41,803 nt of DNA from a virus (UHGV-1359168); one strand, 5' to 3'. Shown: positions 1,901-33,841, counted from the stretch's first letter. Translations and numbers: made by a program. Notes: generated by a model not told the origin, from the letters alone.

Positions 1901-2099
1901 GTTTGCTTAGTTTTAGCTTAGACGCTTATAATGATAACGCTTATCAATAATTTTCTAGCTACACTAGATTTAGATTAAAGAATTAAGCGCAATTAAATTG
2001 CAATGATAGTTTTAAAAGCATTTGGGCGCGTTTTAAAGCATTTCAACGATATAGCAATATAATAGTATTAGCTCGCTATTGAATTGCATTTAAATTAAC

Positions 2100-2167
2100 G
2101 CTAGATGATTTTTAACGTTAGATGATTTTTAACGCTAGATGATTTTTATAGTTAGATGATTAGATAA
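2100..2167. repeat. Four tandem 17-bp direct repeats, (g/t)(c/t)tagatgatttttaac.
   Basis: gctagatgatttttaac gttagatgatttttaac gctagatgatttttata gttagatgattagataa. There are no spacers, so this is not a CRISPR array. Confidence 0.8.
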
Positions 2168-2350
2168 GTGTAAATTGATAATGATTATTAAATTAAATTT
2201 CATTGTATAGAAATGATTAAATTAAGTTTGATTATAATAATCATTATCGTTTAACATTGATTTAAAATATTTAACGTTTATTAATAATCGAAATAAAGCT
2301 ATCTAGCGTTGATTTTAAGAGTGTTTGAGTTTATAGAGTATATTTTATCG

Positions 2351-2392
2351 TTTGAAGTTTTAAAAGCGCGCTATCGAAGCGTTAGCGCGCTT
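2351..2392 (-). terminator. Putative rho-independent terminator after the 156-aa gene: 10-bp perfect stem aagcgcgcta/tagcgcgctt with a 9-nt loop, followed on the minus strand by TTTTAAAAC.
   Basis: The inverted repeat at 2364-2373/2383-2392 sits 10 nt downstream of the minus-strand stop at 2402. The U-run has only 4 T. Confidence 0.45.
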
Positions 2393-2401
2393 AGTTTTGA
2401 T

Positions 2402-2872
2402 TTATTCTTTATCGTCTGATTTATTTCTTTGTTTGCAATTTTCAAGATAATAAATTTTATCTTTTTCATAATCATACGTTGTCGAGTCGTGCATTAACGC
2501 TTTTTTCTCTTTGATTATATCTGCGAGCTTTGATATTTCGCTAGCGTCTGCGTTTGTTTGAATTAGATTTAATAAATCGTTTTCAAGACGCTTTACTTCA
2601 CTTCGTCTTTGATTAGATATAAAGCTCGCAGCGCGACAATAGCTTTTTTTCGCTATCATCTCGTCGTCGCGCTCAAAACGTTGATGATATTTGCAAAATC
2701 TCATCAAACATTGATTTTCATCGCTGTAATAATCTGCGTGCTTGACTTCTCGCGCTTTGCGAGTTGTTAGCTCTTGTAAAAGATTATCAAACTCTGATTT
2801 TGCACTTTTAGAGAGTTTAGCACTCTCAACTATTGAGTTTAATTTACTTACTAGCTCTGATTTACTTAACAT
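2402..2872 (-). CDS. Hypothetical early protein, 156 aa, with a Cys/His-rich central region (CLMRFCKYHQRF...SYC); possible zinc binding.
   Basis: ORF track entry. An AGAGAGA-type ribosome-binding site precedes the ATG (gaaaagagagataaaacaATG). Four tandem promoter copies lie upstream. Confidence 0.55.
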   Translation of the reverse strand: MLSKSELVSKLNSIVESAKLSKSAKSEFDNLLQELTTRKAREVKHADYYSDENQCLMRFCKYHQRFERDDEMIAKKSYCRAASFISNQRRSEVKRLENDLLNLIQTNADASEISKLADIIKEKKALMHDSTTYDYEKDKIYYLENCKQRNKSDDKE

Positions 2873-2940
2873 TGTTTTATCTCTCTTTTCTTATTAGATT
2901 TAGCAAAGATTATGCGCGCTTTAATCTTAGCTTTGATGAA

Positions 2941-3176
2941 ATTATATCATAAGTTTGCTTAAATTAAACTGAATTAAACTCGATATATTTTCATCAAAAC
3001 TAAATCTTGTTTTGATATTTAGCATTATAACATAATCTTACTTAAATTAAACTGAATTAAACTTAATCAGATTATGCGCTTTAGCGTAATTTGATATTAT
3101 AGCATAATTTTTCGATTTTGTCAAGTTGATAGCGATTATCAATTAGTGATAATATCGAAAAGCTTATATTATAACA
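2941..3176 (-). promoter_or_regulatory. Tandem array of four extended -10 promoter elements (TGnTATAAT on the minus strand) at 2941-2949, 3024-3032, 3096-3104 and 3168-3176, spaced 72-83 bp apart, all directed at the 2872 gene.
   Basis: Plus-strand attatatca / attataaca / attatagca / attataaca read on the minus strand as TGATATAAT / TGTTATAAT / TGCTATAAT / TGTTATAAT. Three copies are followed on the plus strand by a cttaaattaaactgaattaaac-like motif. Confidence 0.45.
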
Positions 3177-3443
3177 TAAGTTTGCTTAAAGTTTGCTTAA
3201 AGAACATTAATCTAAATCAAGCGCAATTAAGTTTAATTTATTGCGCTTTGTTTAAATTAAATCTCGTTGATTAGATAGAGATTATCTAATTCTCTATCAA
3301 GTTTTAACATTTTGATAACGTTTCGCTTTTAACGATAGCTTCATCGTTGAAACGTTATCGTTTAAATATTTCTCTAAAAATAGAAACTCTTTTATTTTAT
3401 AGTGCATTTGCGCGCTGTCTAGCATTTCGTTATATTCTTTTAA

Positions 3444-3588
3444 AAGTCGCTCGAGTGAATTAAATCATATTCAAAAACTTGATTTAATTCATCAAGAATA
3501 TTAAATAATTCTAGCTTTTCAATAGCTAACTTATATTTTAGAGCGTAAAAAGTTTGCTCAAACTGATTATATCTGTCGTAATTCATTG
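3444..3588 (-). CDS. Small hypothetical protein, 48 aa (MNYDRYNQFEQTFYALKYKLAIEKLELFNILDELNQVFEYDLIHSSDF).
   Basis: Manual translation. It uses the same AGAGAGA-type ribosome-binding site as the two neighbouring minus-strand genes (gagagagataaaacaATG). It is below the length cutoff of the ORF track. Confidence 0.4.
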
Positions 3589-3622
3589 TTTTATCTCTCT
3601 CTTTACTTAAATTAAGTTGAAT

Positions 3623-3928
3623 TTAGATGATATATTCTAATATTTCATCTAAATAAACGCTTTTAAATTCTTTGCTTATATTTTCTTTGATTTCATTTAA
3701 ATCTAATTCGTCAATCTGATAATAATGCGCGATTTTAATCATAATCGCATTTATCAAATATAATCTATCTTGAATATCGCGTAATGCTTTTTCTGCTTCT
3801 TGATATTCAACAAATATAAAAGACTGATTAGCAAAATCAATCATCTTTTGATTATATTCGCGAATAAACTTATTATTTAGTTTATTCAACTTCAAAAACG
3901 CATTTAGATATTTATCATCATCTAGCAT
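3623..3928 (-). CDS. Hypothetical early protein, 101 aa.
   Basis: ORF track entry. AGAGAGAGA ribosome-binding site. An extended -10 element (TGATATAAT on the minus strand) at 3963-3971 lies 35 bp upstream. Confidence 0.55.
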   Translation of the reverse strand: MLDDDKYLNAFLKLNKLNNKFIREYNQKMIDFANQSFIFVEYQEAEKALRDIQDRLYLINAIMIKIAHYYQIDELDLNEIKENISKEFKSVYLDEILEYII

Positions 3929-3962
3929 TTTATTTTTTCTCTCTCTTTTGATTTATGATAGA

Positions 3963-3990
3963 ATTATATCATCAATTTACTTAAATTAAA
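3963..3990 (-). promoter_or_regulatory. Extended -10 promoter (TGATATAAT on the minus strand) with the cttaaattaaactgaattaaa upstream motif, driving the 3928 gene.
   Basis: Plus-strand attatatcatcaatttacttaaattaaactgaattaaat. Same element family as 2941-3176. Confidence 0.45.
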
Positions 3991-4135
3991 CTGAATTAAA
4001 TAACATTTGTAAAAATATTTTCAAGCTAGAAAAATCGCTTATATAATATGTTACGCGAATAGCATAATTTTGCTTAAGAAACGCTTAAATTGCAACATTA
4101 TCAAATAGACTTAATTATGATAGTGACGTAGATTA

Positions 4136-26324: not shown

Positions 26325-26633
26325 TCATTTTAATCCTCCTATAACCATTAGATTAGAATTAATCTCCTCTATTGTAGCCTTAACTGTATCTAAATCCCAG
26401 CTAACTATTGCTACACCGCCAGCCTCTTTAATTTTCTTTATGTTATATATCTGTAGCTCCGAAACGTTAGTTTTAGTTTCAGGTCTTTTTACTTCTATAG
26501 CTAAGAAAATGCCGCGATAGCACGCTAAGATATCAGGAGTGCCAGATTTATTACTGGCTACTACCTTGACAACATAAGCTCCTATACTTTCAAGATATTT
26601 AATTATCTTGCGCTGTATATCCTGCTCTTTCAT
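26325..26633 (-). CDS. VRR-NUC domain nuclease (PD-(D/E)xK), 102 aa.
   Basis: IKYLESIGAYVVKV...SGTPDILACYRGIFLAIEVKRP...ELQIYNIKKIKEAGGVAIV matches the VRR-NUC architecture (PD...E-V-K). Confidence 0.7.
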   Translation of the reverse strand: MKEQDIQRKIIKYLESIGAYVVKVVASNKSGTPDILACYRGIFLAIEVKRPETKTNVSELQIYNIKKIKEAGGVAIVSWDLDTVKATIEEINSNLMVIGGLK

Positions 26634-27496
26634 CAGTCTATATCCTCGATAGATTTATCGTCCCTGATTCTTACAAACGTTGGCTGTATGTATGTAGCTA
26701 AAAGCTGCTCATACTCTACCTCGATAACTTTGCCGATAAAATAATCAGGGCTTTGCATACGCTCATAATCGCTTAAACCGCTACCAACTTGAACAACTCT
26801 TCCCCAACTATCTTTTAAAACTAGGCTACCTATCATACCTGAATATTTACCTGTGCCCTCTGTAACATCTATACAATGTAGGTCGGCTGTAGGTCTAAAC
26901 TTAATCTTGATAGCTGTATTAACCCGCTTACCAGGCTCATAAGTATGGTCTATCTGCTTGCAGTAAATACCCTCGAACCCGTTTCTGACAACTGAATGGG
27001 CTAAACTCTTAGCTTGCTCGATAGTTAAGTCCCATCCGATAACATTAGCGGTATTCATATCTTCAGGCAGTGATAGTTCCTCGTCCATAAGTCTTATTCT
27101 ATCGCTGTAAGCCCAATCCATAACAGAACCATTAAAGTGTAGGATATCAAATACCATAAACTTAAAAGTGCCAATGCACGGTATATTTTTCTCAAAGTTA
27201 CTCCTTAGATTACCAGTGCTACATTTAACGCGGCTCCCTAGTTTGCCATCGGTGTTAGCTATATATTCACACTCGATTATAAAATCGTCCGGGTTATTCT
27301 CTACTAAAAAATCTGCGATTTCTTTAATATAGAACTGCTTACCGCCGGAAGTCCAAAACTCTACATCTCCGTTAAACTTATGTATTTGGACATAGTTACC
27401 ATCGTATTTAGTTGTAGCTATCCATTTATCTCTAGCTAATTTGCTTTGGGCTATATTAGTTATGTCTTTACCTTTACATTGCTCAATCATTGGCAT
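26633..27496 (-). CDS. ATP-dependent DNA ligase, minimal type, about 287 aa.
   Basis: Adenylation motif I TKYDGNYVQI (KxDG), motif IV FEGIYCKQ, motif V AIKIKFRP. The GGAGGA ribosome-binding site favours the ATG at 27496 over the TTG at 27502. Confidence 0.8.
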   Translation of the reverse strand: MPMIEQCKGKDITNIAQSKLARDKWIATTKYDGNYVQIHKFNGDVEFWTSGGKQFYIKEIADFLVENNPDDFIIECEYIANTDGKLGSRVKCSTGNLRSNFEKNIPCIGTFKFMVFDILHFNGSVMDWAYSDRIRLMDEELSLPEDMNTANVIGWDLTIEQAKSLAHSVVRNGFEGIYCKQIDHTYEPGKRVNTAIKIKFRPTADLHCIDVTEGTGKYSGMIGSLVLKDSWGRVVQVGSGLSDYERMQSPDYFIGKVIEVEYEQLLATYIQPTFVRIRDDKSIEDID

Positions 27497-27773
27497 TGTC
27501 AAATCCTCCTCTATTTATTTCTATGGCCTTAGTTATTTGCTTCATAAACTCTAACACTTCTGACGGTTTAACTAGGCTATAGTTATTAAATACGCTAAAT
27601 AAAACGATTATAGAAGCCCTAAATTTTTCGTCCTTTATAGGTAAATCTCCAATGCGTATATAGCCCCATTGTTTAACGCCCATACCTGGATATAACTTTG
27701 TTATATTAACATAGTTATCGTTTTGGAACAACCCTTGACCTGTAATTAGCTCGTATTGGTAATTATTTTTCAT
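27483..27773 (-). CDS. Small protein, family A (96 aa); paralog of 28037..28303.
   Basis: Shares YxYE, WGYI(R/K)(I/L)G and (V/L)KPS(E/Q)VLE(F/Y)(M/I)(K/R)(Q/K)I with the 28037 protein at conserved spacing. AAGGA ribosome-binding site. Confidence 0.6.
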   Translation of the reverse strand: MKNNYQYELITGQGLFQNDNYVNITKLYPGMGVKQWGYIRIGDLPIKDEKFRASIIVLFSVFNNYSLVKPSEVLEFMKQITKAIEINRGGFDNAND

Positions 27774-28052
27774 TTATTTATCCTTAATGATATAATCAAC
27801 TTTATCTCCTAAATCTAGGAAATGTTTGCCAAGAAATACAGCCATTGTAGCTAGTGATATGTCATACATACCAGCAACTCCACATAATGCTGCTAATATT
27901 TTAAGCCCATAAGTTTGCTCTATCTCGCCCTTAGTTTTAATTATAAGCTCACCTTTAAATTTATCTTTCACAAAGCGAGCTATTCTTATAAGTGTAATGT
28001 TATTATTACGATTATAATCATAGCTCCATCTATAAACTATATCTGGTTCCAT
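27774..28052 (-). CDS. Small protein, family B (92 aa); paralog of 28300..28575.
   Basis: Shares I.LIRIA/IIRAS and LK.LA.LC......D.SL........HF with the 28300 protein. Confidence 0.6.
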   Translation of the reverse strand: MEPDIVYRWSYDYNRNNNITLIRIARFVKDKFKGELIIKTKGEIEQTYGLKILAALCGVAGMYDISLATMAVFLGKHFLDLGDKVDYIIKDK

Positions 28053-28303
28053 AGTCCCTCGATATATCCACGTTTTATGCCAGCTGATGGCGATATTTTT
28101 CTTATGTATTCTAGCACTTGGCTAGGCTTTAGCCTCGACCTAGTATTAATTAACTCCAATACCAAATTAAGCCAATCCTCAGATAAAACTAAACCTAGCT
28201 TTATATATCCCCAAGGTTCATTAACACCGCCATTAAGTTCGGAGATAGTTATATACCAGCGCTCGTTTGTATCCTTAACTGCTTCGTATTTATATGTGCT
28301 CAT
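28037..28303 (-). CDS. Small protein, family A' (88 aa).
   Basis: See the 27483 entry. Translationally coupled overlaps on both sides. Confidence 0.6.
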   Translation of the reverse strand: MSTYKYEAVKDTNERWYITISELNGGVNEPWGYIKLGLVLSEDWLNLVLELINTRSRLKPSQVLEYIRKISPSAGIKRGYIEGLWNQI

Positions 28304-28575
28304 TTATTTTCCTGCCCTATACAAAGTTTTATTTTCTCGTGTCTGAAATGTGTAGCTATAACTTCGCTAAGATTTACTAAGCTTAAATCTGTTATTTCAG
28401 CGCATAACGCTAACGATTTTAAAGCGTTATGTAACGCTGTATTATTCATCTCGTTATAATCTAGCTTGATTATAATCGCTCCGATTTCTATACTATCGAC
28501 TGAAGCGCGAATTATAGCTGTAGTTTTTTCGCTAAACATTGAGTTAATAAACTCCACGCCATACTTAGTTTTCAT
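28300..28575 (-). CDS. Small protein, family B' (91 aa).
   Basis: See the 27774 entry. TAAGGA ribosome-binding site. Confidence 0.6.
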   Translation of the reverse strand: MKTKYGVEFINSMFSEKTTAIIRASVDSIEIGAIIIKLDYNEMNNTALHNALKSLALCAEITDLSLVNLSEVIATHFRHEKIKLCIGQENK

Positions 28576-28814
28576 TTTAAATCCTTATAAGGTATATATG
28601 TAACATCAACATATAATCTTAAGCAATATAAGAAATCCTCAAGCTCCAACTTACCGCAATCGGCAACCTCACATAAAGCATAAACTGCTTTCTTATCAGT
28701 AAAAGGAACTGTTAATCTGCCTTCAGGTTTATCATCTATAAACACGTGGATAAAAATAGATGCTGGTCTAGTTTCTACCACGTATCTATGCCTGTTATTT
28801 GTATTGTTATCCAT
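28572..28814 (-). CDS. Small hypothetical protein, about 80 aa.
   Basis: The AGGAGG ribosome-binding site favours the ATG at 28814 (MDNNTNN...) over the track GTG at 28820. Confidence 0.5.
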   Translation of the reverse strand: MDNNTNNRHRYVVETRPASIFIHVFIDDKPEGRLTVPFTDKKAVYALCEVADCGKLELEDFLYCLRLYVDVTYIPYKDLK

Positions 28815-29079
28815 TTGCACTTCCTCCTACTGATACCATATCAAACATCTGATGTAAGGTATTAACTAATGTATCCTTATCCATATTATTGACTTGTATT
28901 AATTTAGTTATTAACTCCAAGATTTTACTTGTAGTATTGCTTGGAGTAACATTTTTAACATCTATAGCCGCAATTTTACTAACTAATAAACCGTTAGGAT
29001 TATATTCACAAAATACAAGCATACTATAAGGGTCTTTATCTGCCACACCTCTTTCTAAAGATACTTTAAAAGTATTCAT
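28807..29079 (-). CDS. Small hypothetical protein, 90 aa.
   Basis: GAGGAGG ribosome-binding site. Its start is adjacent to the stop of the previous gene. Confidence 0.55.
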   Translation of the reverse strand: MNTFKVSLERGVADKDPYSMLVFCEYNPNGLLVSKIAAIDVKNVTPSNTTSKILELITKLIQVNNMDKDTLVNTLHQMFDMVSVGGSANG

Positions 29080-29346
29080 TTAAACCTCCTCAAAATGGAC
29101 ACTATCAAACCAAGCCGATAGATTGTCCATCAGTTCTTTCCTTTGTATCTTATGCTCGTCTATAATATTTAATAAAATATTCAAGGTAACAAAAGCTAAC
29201 TTACTGTTACGGGCTTCATTGTTAATTAAAGCTACAATATTACCTTTATGAATAACACCTTCAAGCTCTTTAAATATAACCTCAGTATTATCGAAGGCTT
29301 CACTGATACCGTGCTCGTATTGCACATCTACAATATAGGTAGCCAT
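29080..29346 (-). CDS. Small hypothetical protein, about 88 aa.
   Basis: GAGGGAG ribosome-binding site; the ATG at 29346 is preferred. Confidence 0.5.
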   Translation of the reverse strand: MATYIVDVQYEHGISEAFDNTEVIFKELEGVIHKGNIVALINNEARNSKLAFVTLNILLNIIDEHKIQRKELMDNLSAWFDSVHFEEV

Positions 29347-29603
29347 CACAACTCCCTCGGCATTACCGCTATATACTCTAGCTCGGTGCTAACTTTAGCG
29401 TCCATCATAGACATTGGCCAGCACTCTGTAGTAGCTTTATGGCATAAATCTAAAATATCAGCAGGCTCTATCTTTCTACCGAACACTAGCGTCCATTGAA
29501 ATTTTCTAGTGCCGAAATTTTCGTAGTAAATAGTTCCAGCAGTCTTAGTCCCATCTAAAATAAAATAATACCTTACTTCTGGTGTTTTATTAGTGAACCT
29601 CAT
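29346..29603 (-). CDS. Small hypothetical protein, about 85 aa (MRFTNKTPEVRYYFILDG...).
   Basis: The in-frame ATG at 29603 has a strong ribosome-binding site (taaaggagaataaaagaATG). The track start at 29654 has none. Confidence 0.5.
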   Translation of the reverse strand: MRFTNKTPEVRYYFILDGTKTAGTIYYENFGTRKFQWTLVFGRKIEPADILDLCHKATTECWPMSMMDAKVSTELEYIAVMPREL

Positions 29604-29625: not shown

Positions 29626-30195
29626 TTAATGCACCCTGCTGAAAAACCAGCCATCTTTGCGCTTATGCGCTCTATACCCTTTAGCTTCCCAAGCCGCTAT
29701 AATCTCGGCGTCTGTCGGGTTCTTAGATAAAGTAGGTAAAGAAGCTGTAAAATTATCCACCTTTAAATCTTTTGGAGTATTAACTATTTCATCTAGTGTA
29801 GCCTGCTCCATTTCATTAAGTTCTTTTTTCATTTTAGGCACTTCATTACGCTGTAAAAACTCCTGATATAGCCGCTCATAATTAGCGTCAGTGGATTTTA
29901 TAAAAGTCCCAGCTTCATTTAGAAACCCTTTGCGGTCTTTGATATCATTGTAGGCTATCTCTGCGCAGTCAGCTATATTAGAACCAACCAACCTAGCTAT
30001 ATTAACTAGCACCACGAAACAATCGCCAATATCATCTCTGCAATCTTTACCCTTAGCTAGGTTGTCTGCTAGTTCGCCCATTTCGCTCATTAGTTTAAGG
30101 CATTGGGTAACTGCTTTTGAATTAGCTAAGATACCTCTCTCCTCCGACCACTGCTCGATTTTAGTTTGTAGTTCGTTTAAGTTAGGCATTTTCAT
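29626..30195 (-). CDS. MazG-like nucleoside triphosphate pyrophosphohydrolase.
   Basis: All-alpha MazG signature LKLMSEMGELADNLAKGKD...DIGDCFVVLVNIARLVG...AYNDIKDRKG. AGGGAGA ribosome-binding site before ATG 30195 or 30189. Confidence 0.7.
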   Translation of the reverse strand: MKMPNLNELQTKIEQWSEERGILANSKAVTQCLKLMSEMGELADNLAKGKDCRDDIGDCFVVLVNIARLVGSNIADCAEIAYNDIKDRKGFLNEAGTFIKSTDANYERLYQEFLQRNEVPKMKKELNEMEQATLDEIVNTPKDLKVDNFTASLPTLSKNPTDAEIIAAWEAKGYRAHKRKDGWFFSRVH

Positions 30196-30430
30196 TCTCC
30201 CTGTCAAGATTTAGTTCGGCTTTAAGGCTAGCTTCACTATACGGGTGTATAGTTACGCCATAAAGTTTATAAATAAGTTTAGCTTGTTTAAGGCTAATAT
30301 TATACCTATTAGATTTATAAGTAGAAATCATAGAGGCTGATACCCTCAAATGTTTAGAGATTTCTACACCTGTCATACCCTGATTTTCAAGGTCTTCGAT
30401 GTAACTTTGGATAGTTATAACTTTATCCAT
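30182..30430 (-). CDS. Small helix-turn-helix DNA-binding protein (Cro/XRE-like), 82 aa.
   Basis: GMTGVEISKHLRVSASMISTYKSN is a helix-turn-helix pattern. AAGGAG ribosome-binding site. It is the first gene after a promoter-containing intergenic region. Confidence 0.5.
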   Translation of the reverse strand: MDKVITIQSYIEDLENQGMTGVEISKHLRVSASMISTYKSNRYNISLKQAKLIYKLYGVTIHPYSEASLKAELNLDRENENA

Positions 30431-30628: not shown

Positions 30629-31171
30629 TTAGCGTTTATAAACTGCGAGTTTGCGCTCAAATAAATCTATATCATCAACCGCACGGCTAAGGATATTAGA
30701 CATCGTAAGCGAATTATTACCTAGAGATACTTCATTGCTCGCATATTGCTTAACCTGCATAGTATCTGCTAACTTAACTATCAAACTCTCCACACTAACG
30801 CGCCGTTCGTATTCCCTATAAAGCTCATAAATAAAACTAGGGAAGTTCTGAAACATAACATCAGCTTCCGCATCTGCTACAGCCTTAACTAATTCTGGGC
30901 ACATTGTTTTAGTGCTCAAGGTTATATCACCTATAAAACTCTCGGCGAAGTCGTGGATTATAGCCATTTGCACCGCTTTGTTTAAATCGAACTTATAATA
31001 CTTATACAACTCCATTACATAGGTAGCCACAAAGAAACTATGCTCCGCTACTGTTTCGTTAATTATTCTAGGCGTTATTGAATAACGCTGAATAAACTTC
31101 AGGTTATAAACTTTATAAGGGATTGATGGTCCCTCTATTTCATCTCTAGTTAATTCGTCGTAATCCCTCAT
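30629..31171 (-). CDS. HD-domain phosphohydrolase, YfbR-like 5'-deoxynucleotidase.
   Basis: VAEHSFFVATYV ... AIIHDFAESFIGDITLSTK parallels YfbR VSEHSLQVAMVA ... AMYHDASEVLTGDLPTPVK (recalled from memory). Confidence 0.7.
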   Translation of the reverse strand: MRDYDELTRDEIEGPSIPYKVYNLKFIQRYSITPRIINETVAEHSFFVATYVMELYKYYKFDLNKAVQMAIIHDFAESFIGDITLSTKTMCPELVKAVADAEADVMFQNFPSFIYELYREYERRVSVESLIVKLADTMQVKQYASNEVSLGNNSLTMSNILSRAVDDIDLFERKLAVYKR

Positions 31172-31590
31172 TCTATATCCTTATCAGCAACATAACCAAC
31201 ATTAACTACGCCGATTAAAATCTGCTCCAGCTCTTTTAGGTTTCTAGCTACTTGTCCACTCTTAGCTAACATTAGATTAACTTTCTCTATCCCAGGAGTG
31301 TAGTAAATAACCTGTAGTTCGCGAGCATAAGCATAGCCACATTCCCAAAGAGTGCCCATATCTTTACCTGCTGTAGAAGCTATAATAATATCGCTATCAT
31401 CTAGGGCATTTATATTAGTTTGGAATACGTCCTCTAAATCTTGCCCTCTAGCGTTATTGTGCTCTCTAGGGATAAAATTTTTCTTAAAATGCTTTTTAAC
31501 ATAGCCCTCTAACTCGTCGAGGGCTTTTCTTTGTTCTGCTGTAAACCAACCACCTGCTACATAAACCTTAAAATCAAATATTGTCACCAT
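31168..31590 (-). CDS. Nucleoside 2-deoxyribosyltransferase family protein (NDT/Rcl fold), 140 aa.
   Basis: KVYVAGGWFTAEQRKAL set against Lactobacillus NDT IYFGAGWFTDRQNKAY. DMGTLWECGYAYA set against the catalytic-Glu region GLGMELGYALS. NDT sequences are from memory. Confidence 0.75.
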   Translation of the reverse strand: MVTIFDFKVYVAGGWFTAEQRKALDELEGYVKKHFKKNFIPREHNNARGQDLEDVFQTNINALDDSDIIIASTAGKDMGTLWECGYAYARELQVIYYTPGIEKVNLMLAKSGQVARNLKELEQILIGVVNVGYVADKDIE

Positions 31591-32464
31591 CTTTTATTCT
31601 TTTCAATGTTTGTTTAATGTCGCTTTTACGCCTTTCGTAATAGTTCCCTCCTGGAAAATCAGCCCTACGTTTCTGATAAATGCAGTCCTCTGGCTTTAAA
31701 CCTAGAACTACGTTTTCTTGCTTAGGTAAATAAGCTAGGGAGTTATGCCCGCTTAGTGCTGTTTTACAAAAGAACTCGTCCCGTCCACCTATATCCATAT
31801 CTACACACTCCTGCAAGACTGGGTATTTCTTAACTAACTCCAGCCACATAAGCAAAGCTACGATATTATCGCTCTCTGGCTGTATAGCTTCATCTTTGCG
31901 GGTTTTTATAAACGCTATTATATCCTTTAAGCTACCGCTAACATAATAGAAATTGCTCAAGCTTCTCGGTAAAATTGTGCGGGCGTCAAAAATAGATACC
32001 TCTTTACTATCTACCATATCGGCATATAAACGCTTGGCTTCATCGACTATTTCCATATACCTACCAAGAAACTTCTCATTTACCAAAATGCTAGGCTTTA
32101 CCACACAATAATCTCTGCGCATATCGCGGTCGGCGGTGCATTGCGCGCTAAAGCTAAGGGTTCTATGCCTTATAAGGTGTGTAACGTCGATTAAATCCAA
32201 GCCTTCGATTAAAAATGTAACCCTAATAGTTTCTAGTGCTGTAGGTAGCATCTCGCCCTTGAATATAGATTTAACTATCTCCTCTCGGTTATCTATATCT
32301 CCCTCATATACACTATCCCTCCAAGTAGCTGTGGTAAATTCCGGTAAATAACTACAAAGTTCTTTCCAACTTGGACCTGATACTAAAGTAACAGCTATAG
32401 TGTTTATTTGATTTAAATATTCAGTTTCAGGCCTCTCGCCAAATTTAGTTTTTACTCTGCTCAT
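31574..32464 (-). CDS. thyX: Flavin-dependent thymidylate synthase ThyX family protein, 296 aa, with a divergent signature and a C-terminal extension.
   Basis: RVTFLIEG..LIDVTHLIRHRTLSFSAQC set against ThyX FTFHV...VARQWFRHRIASYNELS (the RHR-X7 position holds Cys instead of Ser). ARTILPRSLSNFYYVSGSLKDIIAFIKTR set against [29 protein letters not shown]. Confidence 0.7.
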   Translation of the reverse strand: MSRVKTKFGERPETEYLNQINTIAVTLVSGPSWKELCSYLPEFTTATWRDSVYEGDIDNREEIVKSIFKGEMLPTALETIRVTFLIEGLDLIDVTHLIRHRTLSFSAQCTADRDMRRDYCVVKPSILVNEKFLGRYMEIVDEAKRLYADMVDSKEVSIFDARTILPRSLSNFYYVSGSLKDIIAFIKTRKDEAIQPESDNIVALLMWLELVKKYPVLQECVDMDIGGRDEFFCKTALSGHNSLAYLPKQENVVLGLKPEDCIYQKRRADFPGGNYYERRKSDIKQTLKRIKDGDNI

Positions 32465-32886
32465 TATTTACTCCTTTTCCAATCCTCGTAAGTTTCGATA
32501 GCTAATTTAGTTATATCGCTATCATCTCCAGTAAGTTCTTTAACCATAGCTATAAAGTTTAGGATTTCCTCGTCATCTTGCTGGCTTATACTGCTATCCT
32601 TATTTTCGGCTTCACTAGCTACAGCTGTCAAGGCTTTCTCCACCAAAGTAGCATACCCAGCAATATCGTGCCAAGTATCTATATGGTCTGGAGTTGTAGC
32701 TAAACGGGATAGTTTATTCACGATGTCGTAAATATAAACCATTTGCACTGCGTCTAAACCCTTACCATTAACCGCTAGATGTCTATCCTTGACTAGTTTC
32801 ATAACATTAGCTCTGAACTCAGAACCACCTTTATAATCACCATAAACAGCACCACGCTCCTTAAGCGTTTCATTTACATTACTCAT
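32464..32886 (-). CDS. Small all-alpha protein, 140 aa, possibly of the phage nucleotide-metabolism/modification-associated DUF1599 (Nmad1-like) family.
   Basis: ERGAVYGDY...KLSRL...HIDTWHDIAGYATL is reminiscent of that family. The family call is from memory and uncertain. The CDS itself is well supported by operon context. Confidence 0.3.
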   Translation of the reverse strand: MSNVNETLKERGAVYGDYKGGSEFRANVMKLVKDRHLAVNGKGLDAVQMVYIYDIVNKLSRLATTPDHIDTWHDIAGYATLVEKALTAVASEAENKDSSISQQDDEEILNFIAMVKELTGDDSDITKLAIETYEDWKRSK

Positions 32887-33841
32887 TGTTTTTCTCCTTG
32901 TTAATTTCTGGACGCCATAGATTTAAACTATAGCTATCATTTTCAGGGTCGTAGCTAATCTGGTGCATACTGACCAACCTCATATTTTTAATCGCGTCAA
33001 ACACATCACGCCCTCTAGCTTCGTATTCATTAACTACACGCTCCCAACACTCGGTGGCTGAACTAGCTCCCGCTAAGATTTTATCGGCTGTTTTAGGACC
33101 TACTTTAGCTAAACCGATAACGTTGTCGCCTGTGTCCCCGGTTAAGCACTGTTTGTAGTGGTGCTTCATAGCCTGATCGGGTTCTACCTCGAAAAAAGTC
33201 ATCTTTATCTCGTCTAGGTGATTACCTGCTTTAGTTGTAGTTTCTGCCCTGCTGTAATAGTTAAAGTGTGTCCCTGGTAAAGTATATAGCACGTCTTTAT
33301 CCACCGCACAAAGCAGATATTTATCAGGCTGGGCTTTTTTCTTAGCGATAACCGCATCATCAGCCTCGAAGTCGTAATGGATAAAAGCTTTTTCTGGGAA
33401 CGCTTCAGCCATTTTAACTTTTAGCTCATTTAACCCGTCAGGGCTTTTCATATCCAAGCGATTAGCTTTATACATAGGGTCTATTTTAGTGTATCTAAAG
33501 CTGCCGCGACCAATAGTGAAATGTAACTCCCAATCACTACAACCTGTAGCGTCAAGGATACCCTGTAACTTCTCTAGTGTAGATTGGTAAGCATTATCTA
33601 TATTGCAGATAGCTACAGTCCCAGCTTCAGAGTCGTAAGTTTTCATCGAGCTAATAGTTGCCCACTCCTCGTCTGAATACATAGCCCTGGGTAGCAGTTC
33701 TATAACCTCTTGGTGCTTAGTTACGCTCCCGAAAACTACAGTATCCGCGTCGATTAACGCTATCTTACCGTTTTTAGGTGCGGCTACATCACCATTTTGA
33801 GCTAAGTCAATATCGACCAACTCACCGTCATCAAATTCCAT
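32879..33841 (-). CDS. 5'-3' exonuclease / flap endonuclease (T7 gp6-like, FEN family), 320 aa.
   Basis: KIALIDADTVVF (Asp cluster) and YDFEADDAVIA (the E-A-D-D motif of 5' nucleases). AAAGGAGA ribosome-binding site. Confidence 0.8.
   Translation of the reverse strand: MEFDDGELVDIDLAQNGDVAAPKNGKIALIDADTVVFGSVTKHQEVIELLPRAMYSDEEWATISSMKTYDSEAGTVAICNIDNAYQSTLEKLQGILDATGCSDWELHFTIGRGSFRYTKIDPMYKANRLDMKSPDGLNELKVKMAEAFPEKAFIHYDFEADDAVIAKKKAQPDKYLLCAVDKDVLYTLPGTHFNYYSRAETTTKAGNHLDEIKMTFFEVEPDQAMKHHYKQCLTGDTGDNVIGLAKVGPKTADKILAGASSATECWERVVNEYEARGRDVFDAIKNMRLVSMHQISYDPENDSYSLNLWRPEINKEKNNE

Follow-up and report, generated by a model that had tools for sequence, protein, structure and literature searches.

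Arrays of small, fast-turning-over and partly paralogous ORFans are familiar in phages. In phage T7 the small class II genes (gp1.2, gp2, gp5.9) are interspersed among the DNA-metabolism genes, and each of their products inhibits a host protein on its own. Anti-CRISPR and anti-defence operons are clusters of small ORFans with fast turnover and a patchy distribution among close relatives. In T4-type phages, variable regions hold small ORFans, most of them non-essential (Arbiol et al. 2010, PMC2839356). In phage T4, the small counter-defence gene tifA undergoes tandem amplification (Srikant et al. 2022, PMC9391042). Here we describe an array of eight small open reading frames (ORFs) on the minus strand of the viral DNA UHGV-1359168, a stretch of 41,803 nucleotides (nt) that is called the window throughout. 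The array occupies positions 27483-29603, between a MazG-like gene and an ATP-dependent DNA ligase gene, and it gives no sign of a new kind of system. We favour the reading, with a probability of about 0.55, that this interval is a variable (hyperplastic) accessory slot of gene-sized, single-gene cassettes whose products are host-directed single binders. The evolutionary and structural description of the slot is likely to hold; a host-directed function of the array products is proposed tentatively, by analogy.

The locus resembles each of these systems in part. Like the T4-type hyperplastic regions, the array varies in ORFan content by insertion, deletion and replacement between near-identical phages. 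However, the T4-type regions shuffle via repeated promoter/stem-loop cassettes, whereas the genes of this array abut or overlap and its insertions and deletions are gene-precise. The array lacks intergenic spacers and carries no repeated promoter/terminator cassettes (T4-type PeSL) between its genes; neither promoter-like sites (29 versus 29.1 expected) nor terminator-like sites (5 versus 3.9 expected) are enriched inside it. The slot also sits inside a replication operon, unlike the T4-type regions. The tifA case is comparable as the tandem duplication of a small accessory gene in phage adaptation, with gain and loss that depend on the host, but the tifA copies are recent and identical and their target, ToxN, has been demonstrated, whereas the copies in this array are old (20-30% identity) and known from sequence alone. 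The T7 class II proteins, like those of the array, are shorter than 100 amino acids (aa) and are encoded among replication and nucleotide-metabolism genes, adjoining the ligase gene; however, the T7 small genes are not tandem paralogs, and no sequence or structural similarity between the array and any T7 protein was found. The likeness to anti-CRISPR operons lies in the clustering, turnover and patchiness of the genes. Unlike those operons, the array matches no known anti-defence family, resembles no characterised anti-defence protein in sequence or structure, and has no helix-turn-helix (HTH) gene of the 'aca' type at its 3' end. The only HTH_3 gene (30182-30430) lies upstream of the array, before the MazG-like gene.

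The eight genes and their flanks are listed here in transcription order, MazG-like to F-E-D-C-B'-A'-B-A to ligase, with the ratio of nonsynonymous to synonymous substitution rates (dN/dS), calculated pairwise by the Nei-Gojobori method across orthologs.

29626..30207, minus strand: MazG-like gene, upstream flank, all-alpha nucleoside triphosphate (NTP) pyrophosphatase-like; the label is weakly supported
29346..29603, minus strand: F, 85 aa from start 29603, singleton, in every relative, dN/dS 0.25
29080..29346, minus strand: E, 88 aa, E/D/D2 family, in every relative, dN/dS 0.17
28807..29079, minus strand: D, 90 aa, E/D/D2 family, absent from all 30 fetched loci
28572..28820, minus strand: C, 80-82 aa (start GTG 28820 or ATG 28814), singleton, dN/dS 0.14
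28300..28575, minus strand: B', 91 aa, probable distant paralog of B, 21-26% identity, dN/dS 0.09
28037..28303, minus strand: A', 88 aa, paralog of A with about 30% identity, accessory, dN/dS 0.20 where intact
27774..28052, minus strand: B, 92 aa, family B, accessory, predicted topology β-β-β-α-α-β, dN/dS 0.16
27483..27773, minus strand: A, 96 aa, family A, predicted topology β-β-β-α-α-β (AlphaFold2 confidence 83), dN/dS 0.21
26633..27502, minus strand: ATP-dependent DNA ligase, downstream flank, Pfam DNA_ligase_A_M (2.6e-21) and DNA_ligase_OB_2

The evidence for a variable slot comes from the relatives of this phage. The interval from the MazG-like gene to the ligase gene was classified by tblastn in 30 fetched loci, which represent about 24 distinct contigs. 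Eight arrangements are found, and the flanks stay similar among them (ligase 85-99% and MazG-like 71-96% identical). In the following list, ψ marks a pseudogene.

Window: F-E-D-C-B'-A'-B-A
L001: F-E-C-B'-A'-B-A
L002: F-E-C-D2-B'-A'-B-A
L003: F-E-C(frameshifted)-D2-B'-ψA'-B-A
L020: F-E-C-B'-ψA'-B-A
L007: F-E-C-D2-B'-B-A
L008: ...B'-D2-A'-B-A
L011-L018 and L023-L030 (16 contigs, the commonest form): F-E-D2-B'-A

The constant core, found in all sampled relatives, consists of F, E, B' and A; the accessory genes are A', B, C and D/D2, each absent or pseudogenised in some relatives. In the short form, carried by 16 contigs, A', B and C are missing, and B' and A are adjacent with an overlap of 11 nt. 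A lies directly upstream of the ligase gene in every relative examined and overlaps its start by 20 nt. B' is the most constrained gene of the array, and its 3' end is followed by A', B, D2 or A depending on the genome. The joints are gene-precise and fall at ...AATAA(A)TG stop/start junctions. Both B-A units have the stop of the B-type gene against the start of the A-type gene, and in both the 3' end of the A-type gene runs 16-20 nt into its downstream neighbour. The Shine-Dalgarno sequence of that neighbour lies, in both units, within conserved I-x-R-G codons close to the C-terminus of the A-type protein. Because of the alternation of the two types and this parallel junction architecture, B'-A'-B-A is most simply explained as an old duplication of a B-A unit. 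The earlier claim that a two-gene unit was duplicated as a unit is thus plausible, but the homology of B and B' on which it also depends is marginal. Relative to the common B'-A form, the inner A'-B is an insertion or a deletion: the B-A unit may have been duplicated to give the long form, or the short form may derive from a deletion.

The array had been described in the original prediction as eight translationally coupled ORFs between the ligase and MazG genes, and both the coordinates and the coupling are correct. From the MazG-like/F junction to the A/ligase junction the gaps are 1, -1, 0, -14, -4, -4, -16, 0 and -20 nt, and a Shine-Dalgarno-like sequence precedes the start of most of the genes. 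The gap of 1 nt in front of F becomes 22 nt if F starts at 29603; this start is conserved and has AAGGAG upstream, and 29624 and 29654 are possible alternative starts of the ORF. The ORFs are real genes under purifying selection. Their dN/dS values range from 0.09 to 0.25 (0.24 for D2, which is found in relatives), compared with 0.11 for the ligase and 0.10 for the MazG-like gene, and the frames are conserved in relatives, so that the concern that they might be untranslated is removed. The products are small, soluble and near-neutral proteins (isoelectric point 4.8-8.7). None of them has a transmembrane segment or a metal-binding motif, and their charge gives no indication of DNA-mimic, basic or DNA-binding character.

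Pairwise and profile comparisons place six of the genes of the window and its relatives' D2 in three paralog families. A and A' make the clearest pair. BLASTP gives E=2e-10 with 32% identity over 69 aa, the Smith-Waterman score (z=15.3) is reached by 0 of 500 shuffles, and the hhalign probability is 95-97%. All of the A motifs named beforehand are present, and on these scores the paralogy of A and A' is solid. The A/A' profile shows no sequence relation to the B/B' or E/D families. The third family, E/D/D2, had been overlooked. E and D2 align with a Smith-Waterman z of 9.6 and an hhalign probability of 95%, D and D2 with a z of 7.4 and a probability of 87%. D-type proteins (P0099-P0105) occur on other database contigs of about 41-42 kb.

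The B/B' pair is more difficult. BLASTP gives E=7e-4 as a single comparison and 0.01 within the 8-protein set (30% identity over 46 aa), the Smith-Waterman score (z=3.9) is reached by 4 of 500 shuffles, and hhalign gives E=0.007-0.012 with z=3.2 and 1 of 40 column shuffles reaching the score. The full-length alignment is collinear, with 21-26% identity. Since this pair ranks 4th among 36 and above D/E (z 2.8), which is demonstrably homologous through D2, the paralogy of B and B' is probable, not proven; the expected similarity is there, but it is weak. The B/B' profile can also be matched in register to 76-77 columns of the E/D profile, with an E-value of 0.011-0.013 that is no better than B versus B' and is non-significant. 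The similarity of C to B is marginal.

Some observations on the E/D/D2 family may be added. D lies between E and C (window 28807-29079), while D2 lies between C and B' (L002 4943-5212), or after B' in L008, and no locus among the 30 carries both. P0094, from a 1474-nt contig, is a hybrid of E and D2 whose junction lies at corresponding positions in the two paralogs, and P0107, from a 39706-nt contig, is an E with an internal deletion. These two could be either products of natural unequal recombination between tandem paralogs or assembly artefacts. In nr, 'MAG TPA' records label an E-type protein (P0061) 'ATPase component of ABC transporter' and a D2-type protein (P0086) 'corrinoid adenosyltransferase'; our searches back neither label.

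A' carries three different lesions in relatives, a clean deletion in L007 and independent frameshifts in L003 and L020. In L003 there is an extra inserted base together with an in-frame stop codon, and in L020 one G is lost from TGGGG at the invariant WGY codons. The remnant of the L003 type (P0027) is present on four contigs from three sources, and so this lesion is not a single assembly error. Both copies of the unit had been said to keep intact frames; this is true in the window, but A' is a pseudogene or absent in several relatives. Both frameshifts (L003 1388-1643; L020 3472-3734) fall within a few bases of the invariant W-G-Y-I codons (TGGGGATATATAAAG), and this clustering may be a mutational hot spot or a coincidence. 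Gene C of L003 (593-842) is frameshifted near its 3' end on the same contig as the dead A', and the array of L003 seems to be decaying in more than one gene. An antisense ORF of 143 aa (27915-28346, plus strand) runs across B and A' and is retained in a shorter version in relatives. Its sequence is hydrophobic and of low complexity, and most probably this ORF is a side effect of the AT-rich coding strand that faces it.

Neither A nor B had been recognised as a member of any family, and database searches agree. Scanning all eight proteins against Pfam, PHROG and NCBIfam produced sub-threshold noise only (DUF1107 at E 0.0013 for B; a CNF fragment), and nothing meaningful came from searching the PDB with sequence profiles of A, B and E/D. 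A word-indexed search of 5.8 billion proteins yielded the clusters A/A' (27), B/B' (17) and E/D/D2 (66). With the A/A' profile, HMMER was run exhaustively over 1.84 billion representatives and recovered A, A' and a fragment of a frameshifted A' only. No relative of A or of the terminase was found in 185,579 species genomes, megablast found no related cultured phages by DNA, and one contig of the assembly GCA_003556025.1 is the only NCBI record with the array. A blastn match of 77 nt in the MazG-like gene (query 3409-3485, window 30008-30084) concerns the flank only and was discarded as irrelevant. The longest contigs bearing the three families are about 40-42 kb, and as judged from these matches the families are confined to this one group of phages.

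AlphaFold2 (AF2) predicts for A three strands (residues 5-10, 20-28 and 32-41), two helices (49-64 and 70-80) and a last strand (86-88), with a predicted local distance difference test score (pLDDT) of 83.3 and a predicted template modelling score (pTM) of 0.76. For B the strands are predicted at residues 5-14, 19-28 and 31-41, the helices at 47-62 and 67-79 and the last strand at 86-91 (pLDDT 81.8 in the best model, 55-82 among the five models; pTM 0.71). The two models thus show the same order and boundaries of elements, β-β-β-α-α-β. They were built from shallow alignments, and that for B mixes B and B' sequences. No convincing match to the predicted fold was found in PDB or BFVD. The families are undescribed, and their predicted fold is without a clear match.

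The slot is built from cassettes of about 80-96 aa, namely the three paralog families (A/A', B/B' and E/D/D2) and the singletons C and F. The array has grown by tandem duplication and is remodelled gene by gene, through precise insertion, deletion, reshuffling and pseudogenisation at the stop/start junctions. We propose that each product would act alone as a small binder or modulator of a host factor, as suggested by analogy with the T7 small genes and with what accessory and counter-defence genes do in T4-type phages (PMC2839356, PMC9391042). The likely targets would be defence, nucleic-acid or nucleotide-metabolism proteins of the host, and the paralogs may represent alternative target specificities that are retained or lost according to the host strain. 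Several points weigh against this proposal. No relative lacks any of the four core genes, and the constraint on B' equals that on the ligase; a housekeeping role in the DNA metabolism of the phage fits this equally. At least one B-type and at least one A-type gene are kept in every genome, side by side and with an overlap in the short form, and there may be a looser partnership of 'a B-type' with 'an A-type' protein. The homology of B and B' and the idea of a single fold both depend on weak sequence statistics and shallow-alignment AF2 models.

The original prediction went further and suggested that the A-type and B-type products cooperate in a binary system, such as an inhibitor with its partner or a heterodimer, and that duplication of the whole two-gene unit had produced two functional pairs. 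Several features agree with this: the B'-A'-B-A alternation with A/A' clearly and B/B' probably paralogous, the retention of both types in all of the about 24 distinct contigs, the 11-nt B'/A overlap, and the similar predicted folds of A and B with an edge strand that could pair. However, the named partners are not gained and lost together. A occurs without B in the 16 short-array contigs, B' occurs without a working A' in the same contigs and in L003, L007 and L020, and B is intact where A' is dead or absent, as in L007 with B'-B-A; in L008, D2 separates B' from A'. Therefore (B',A') and (B,A) are not obligate pairs. E and F are as constant as B' and A, so constancy is not specific to A/B, and the Pfam, PHROG and NCBIfam scans gave no sequence similarity to any known two-component system. 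We consider such a binary system unlikely. The array might instead supply accessory factors for the phage's own replication, repair or nucleotide metabolism, such as adaptors or regulators of ligase, polymerase, helicases or deoxynucleoside triphosphate (dNTP) pool enzymes, and not be directed at the host. The embedding and translational coupling of the array in a replication operon suit such a role, as do the permanent presence of F, E, B' and A and the ligase-like dN/dS of B' (0.09), but we find it quite unlikely. The phage lineage, which is uncultured and has genomes of about 42 kb, encodes a family-A DNA polymerase (PolA), and the phages with the closest PolA (about 30% identity; Pseudoalteromonas PH1, Vibrio VPMS1, Dickeya Amaethon and Edwardsiella KF-1) gave no match to the three families. 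Moreover, all three families are restricted to this lineage, half of the array genes appear dispensable in nature, and the proteins have no basic or DNA-binding character.

It is doubtful, and less probable than either of these, that all eight genes are diverged copies of one new phage superfamily of about 90 aa with the β-β-β-α-α-β topology, directed at the host for counter-defence or takeover, in which a B-type/A-type core heteromer would be retargeted by paralog swapping. Three observations hint at this: A and B share their predicted topology, B/B' and E/D align in register, though without significance (77 columns, E 0.011), and a B-type and an A-type gene are constantly present. Chance similarity, or untranslated ORFs, would be a very improbable explanation. 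B/B' is marginal when taken alone, with 4 of 500 sequence shuffles and 1 of 40 profile shuffles reaching the real score, but A/A', E/D2 and D/D2 are far beyond chance, and with all eight frames under purifying selection and conserved in relatives this explanation is already refuted for A/A' and for coding status. We thus retain the variable accessory slot as the preferred reading.

The array lies mid-way in a long minus-strand operon for replication and nucleotide metabolism, not in a separate early region. The replication genes of this operon encode a DUF5906 primase/helicase-like protein, a UvrD-like helicase, PolA and a 5'-3' exonuclease. The array is preceded by genes for a ThyX-like protein, a nucleoside 2-deoxyribosyltransferase, an HD phosphohydrolase, the HTH_3 protein and the MazG-like protein, and it is followed by those for the ligase, an Hjc-type resolvase and an SNF2-like helicase. 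The flanking gene that had been called MazG is present, but its label is weak: Pfam gave no match, and the best support is NCBIfam PRK09562 (NTP pyrophosphohydrolase) with E=0.002, far below the cut-off of that model. Nucleotide-pool genes are dense upstream of the array (30629-33841 and 29626-30207), with the ThyX-like protein, the nucleoside 2-deoxyribosyltransferase, a YfbR-like HD 5'-deoxynucleotidase, DUF6378 and the MazG-like protein. This set could serve to remodel the dNTP pool or to supply a modified base for the DNA of the phage. With 41.8 kb the window is about as long as the related contigs (40-42 kb), and so it is probably the whole phage genome. Positions 2001-4000, between the minus-strand operon side and the structural genes, are low in GC (27% versus 35-44% elsewhere) with few short ORFs, and may be a regulatory or true early region. 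Positions 1-700 have no convincing ORF, and the short ORFs there resemble translated non-coding sequence. In the window Rfam gave nothing at the gathering threshold, no tRNA genes were found, and the Haemophilus-type uptake sequence occurs once, not above chance.

The locus adds three lineage-restricted families of small proteins to the 'dark matter' of phages. It is also a natural example of the turnover of single-gene cassettes in a tightly coupled replication operon, without intergenic recombination cassettes, and this turnover includes duplication, gene-precise insertion and deletion, repeated pseudogenisation and possibly a chimera of paralogs. If the array products are counter-defence factors, the series of presence and absence among relatives (short versus long arrays, A' dead or alive) would be a ready panel for mapping their targets.

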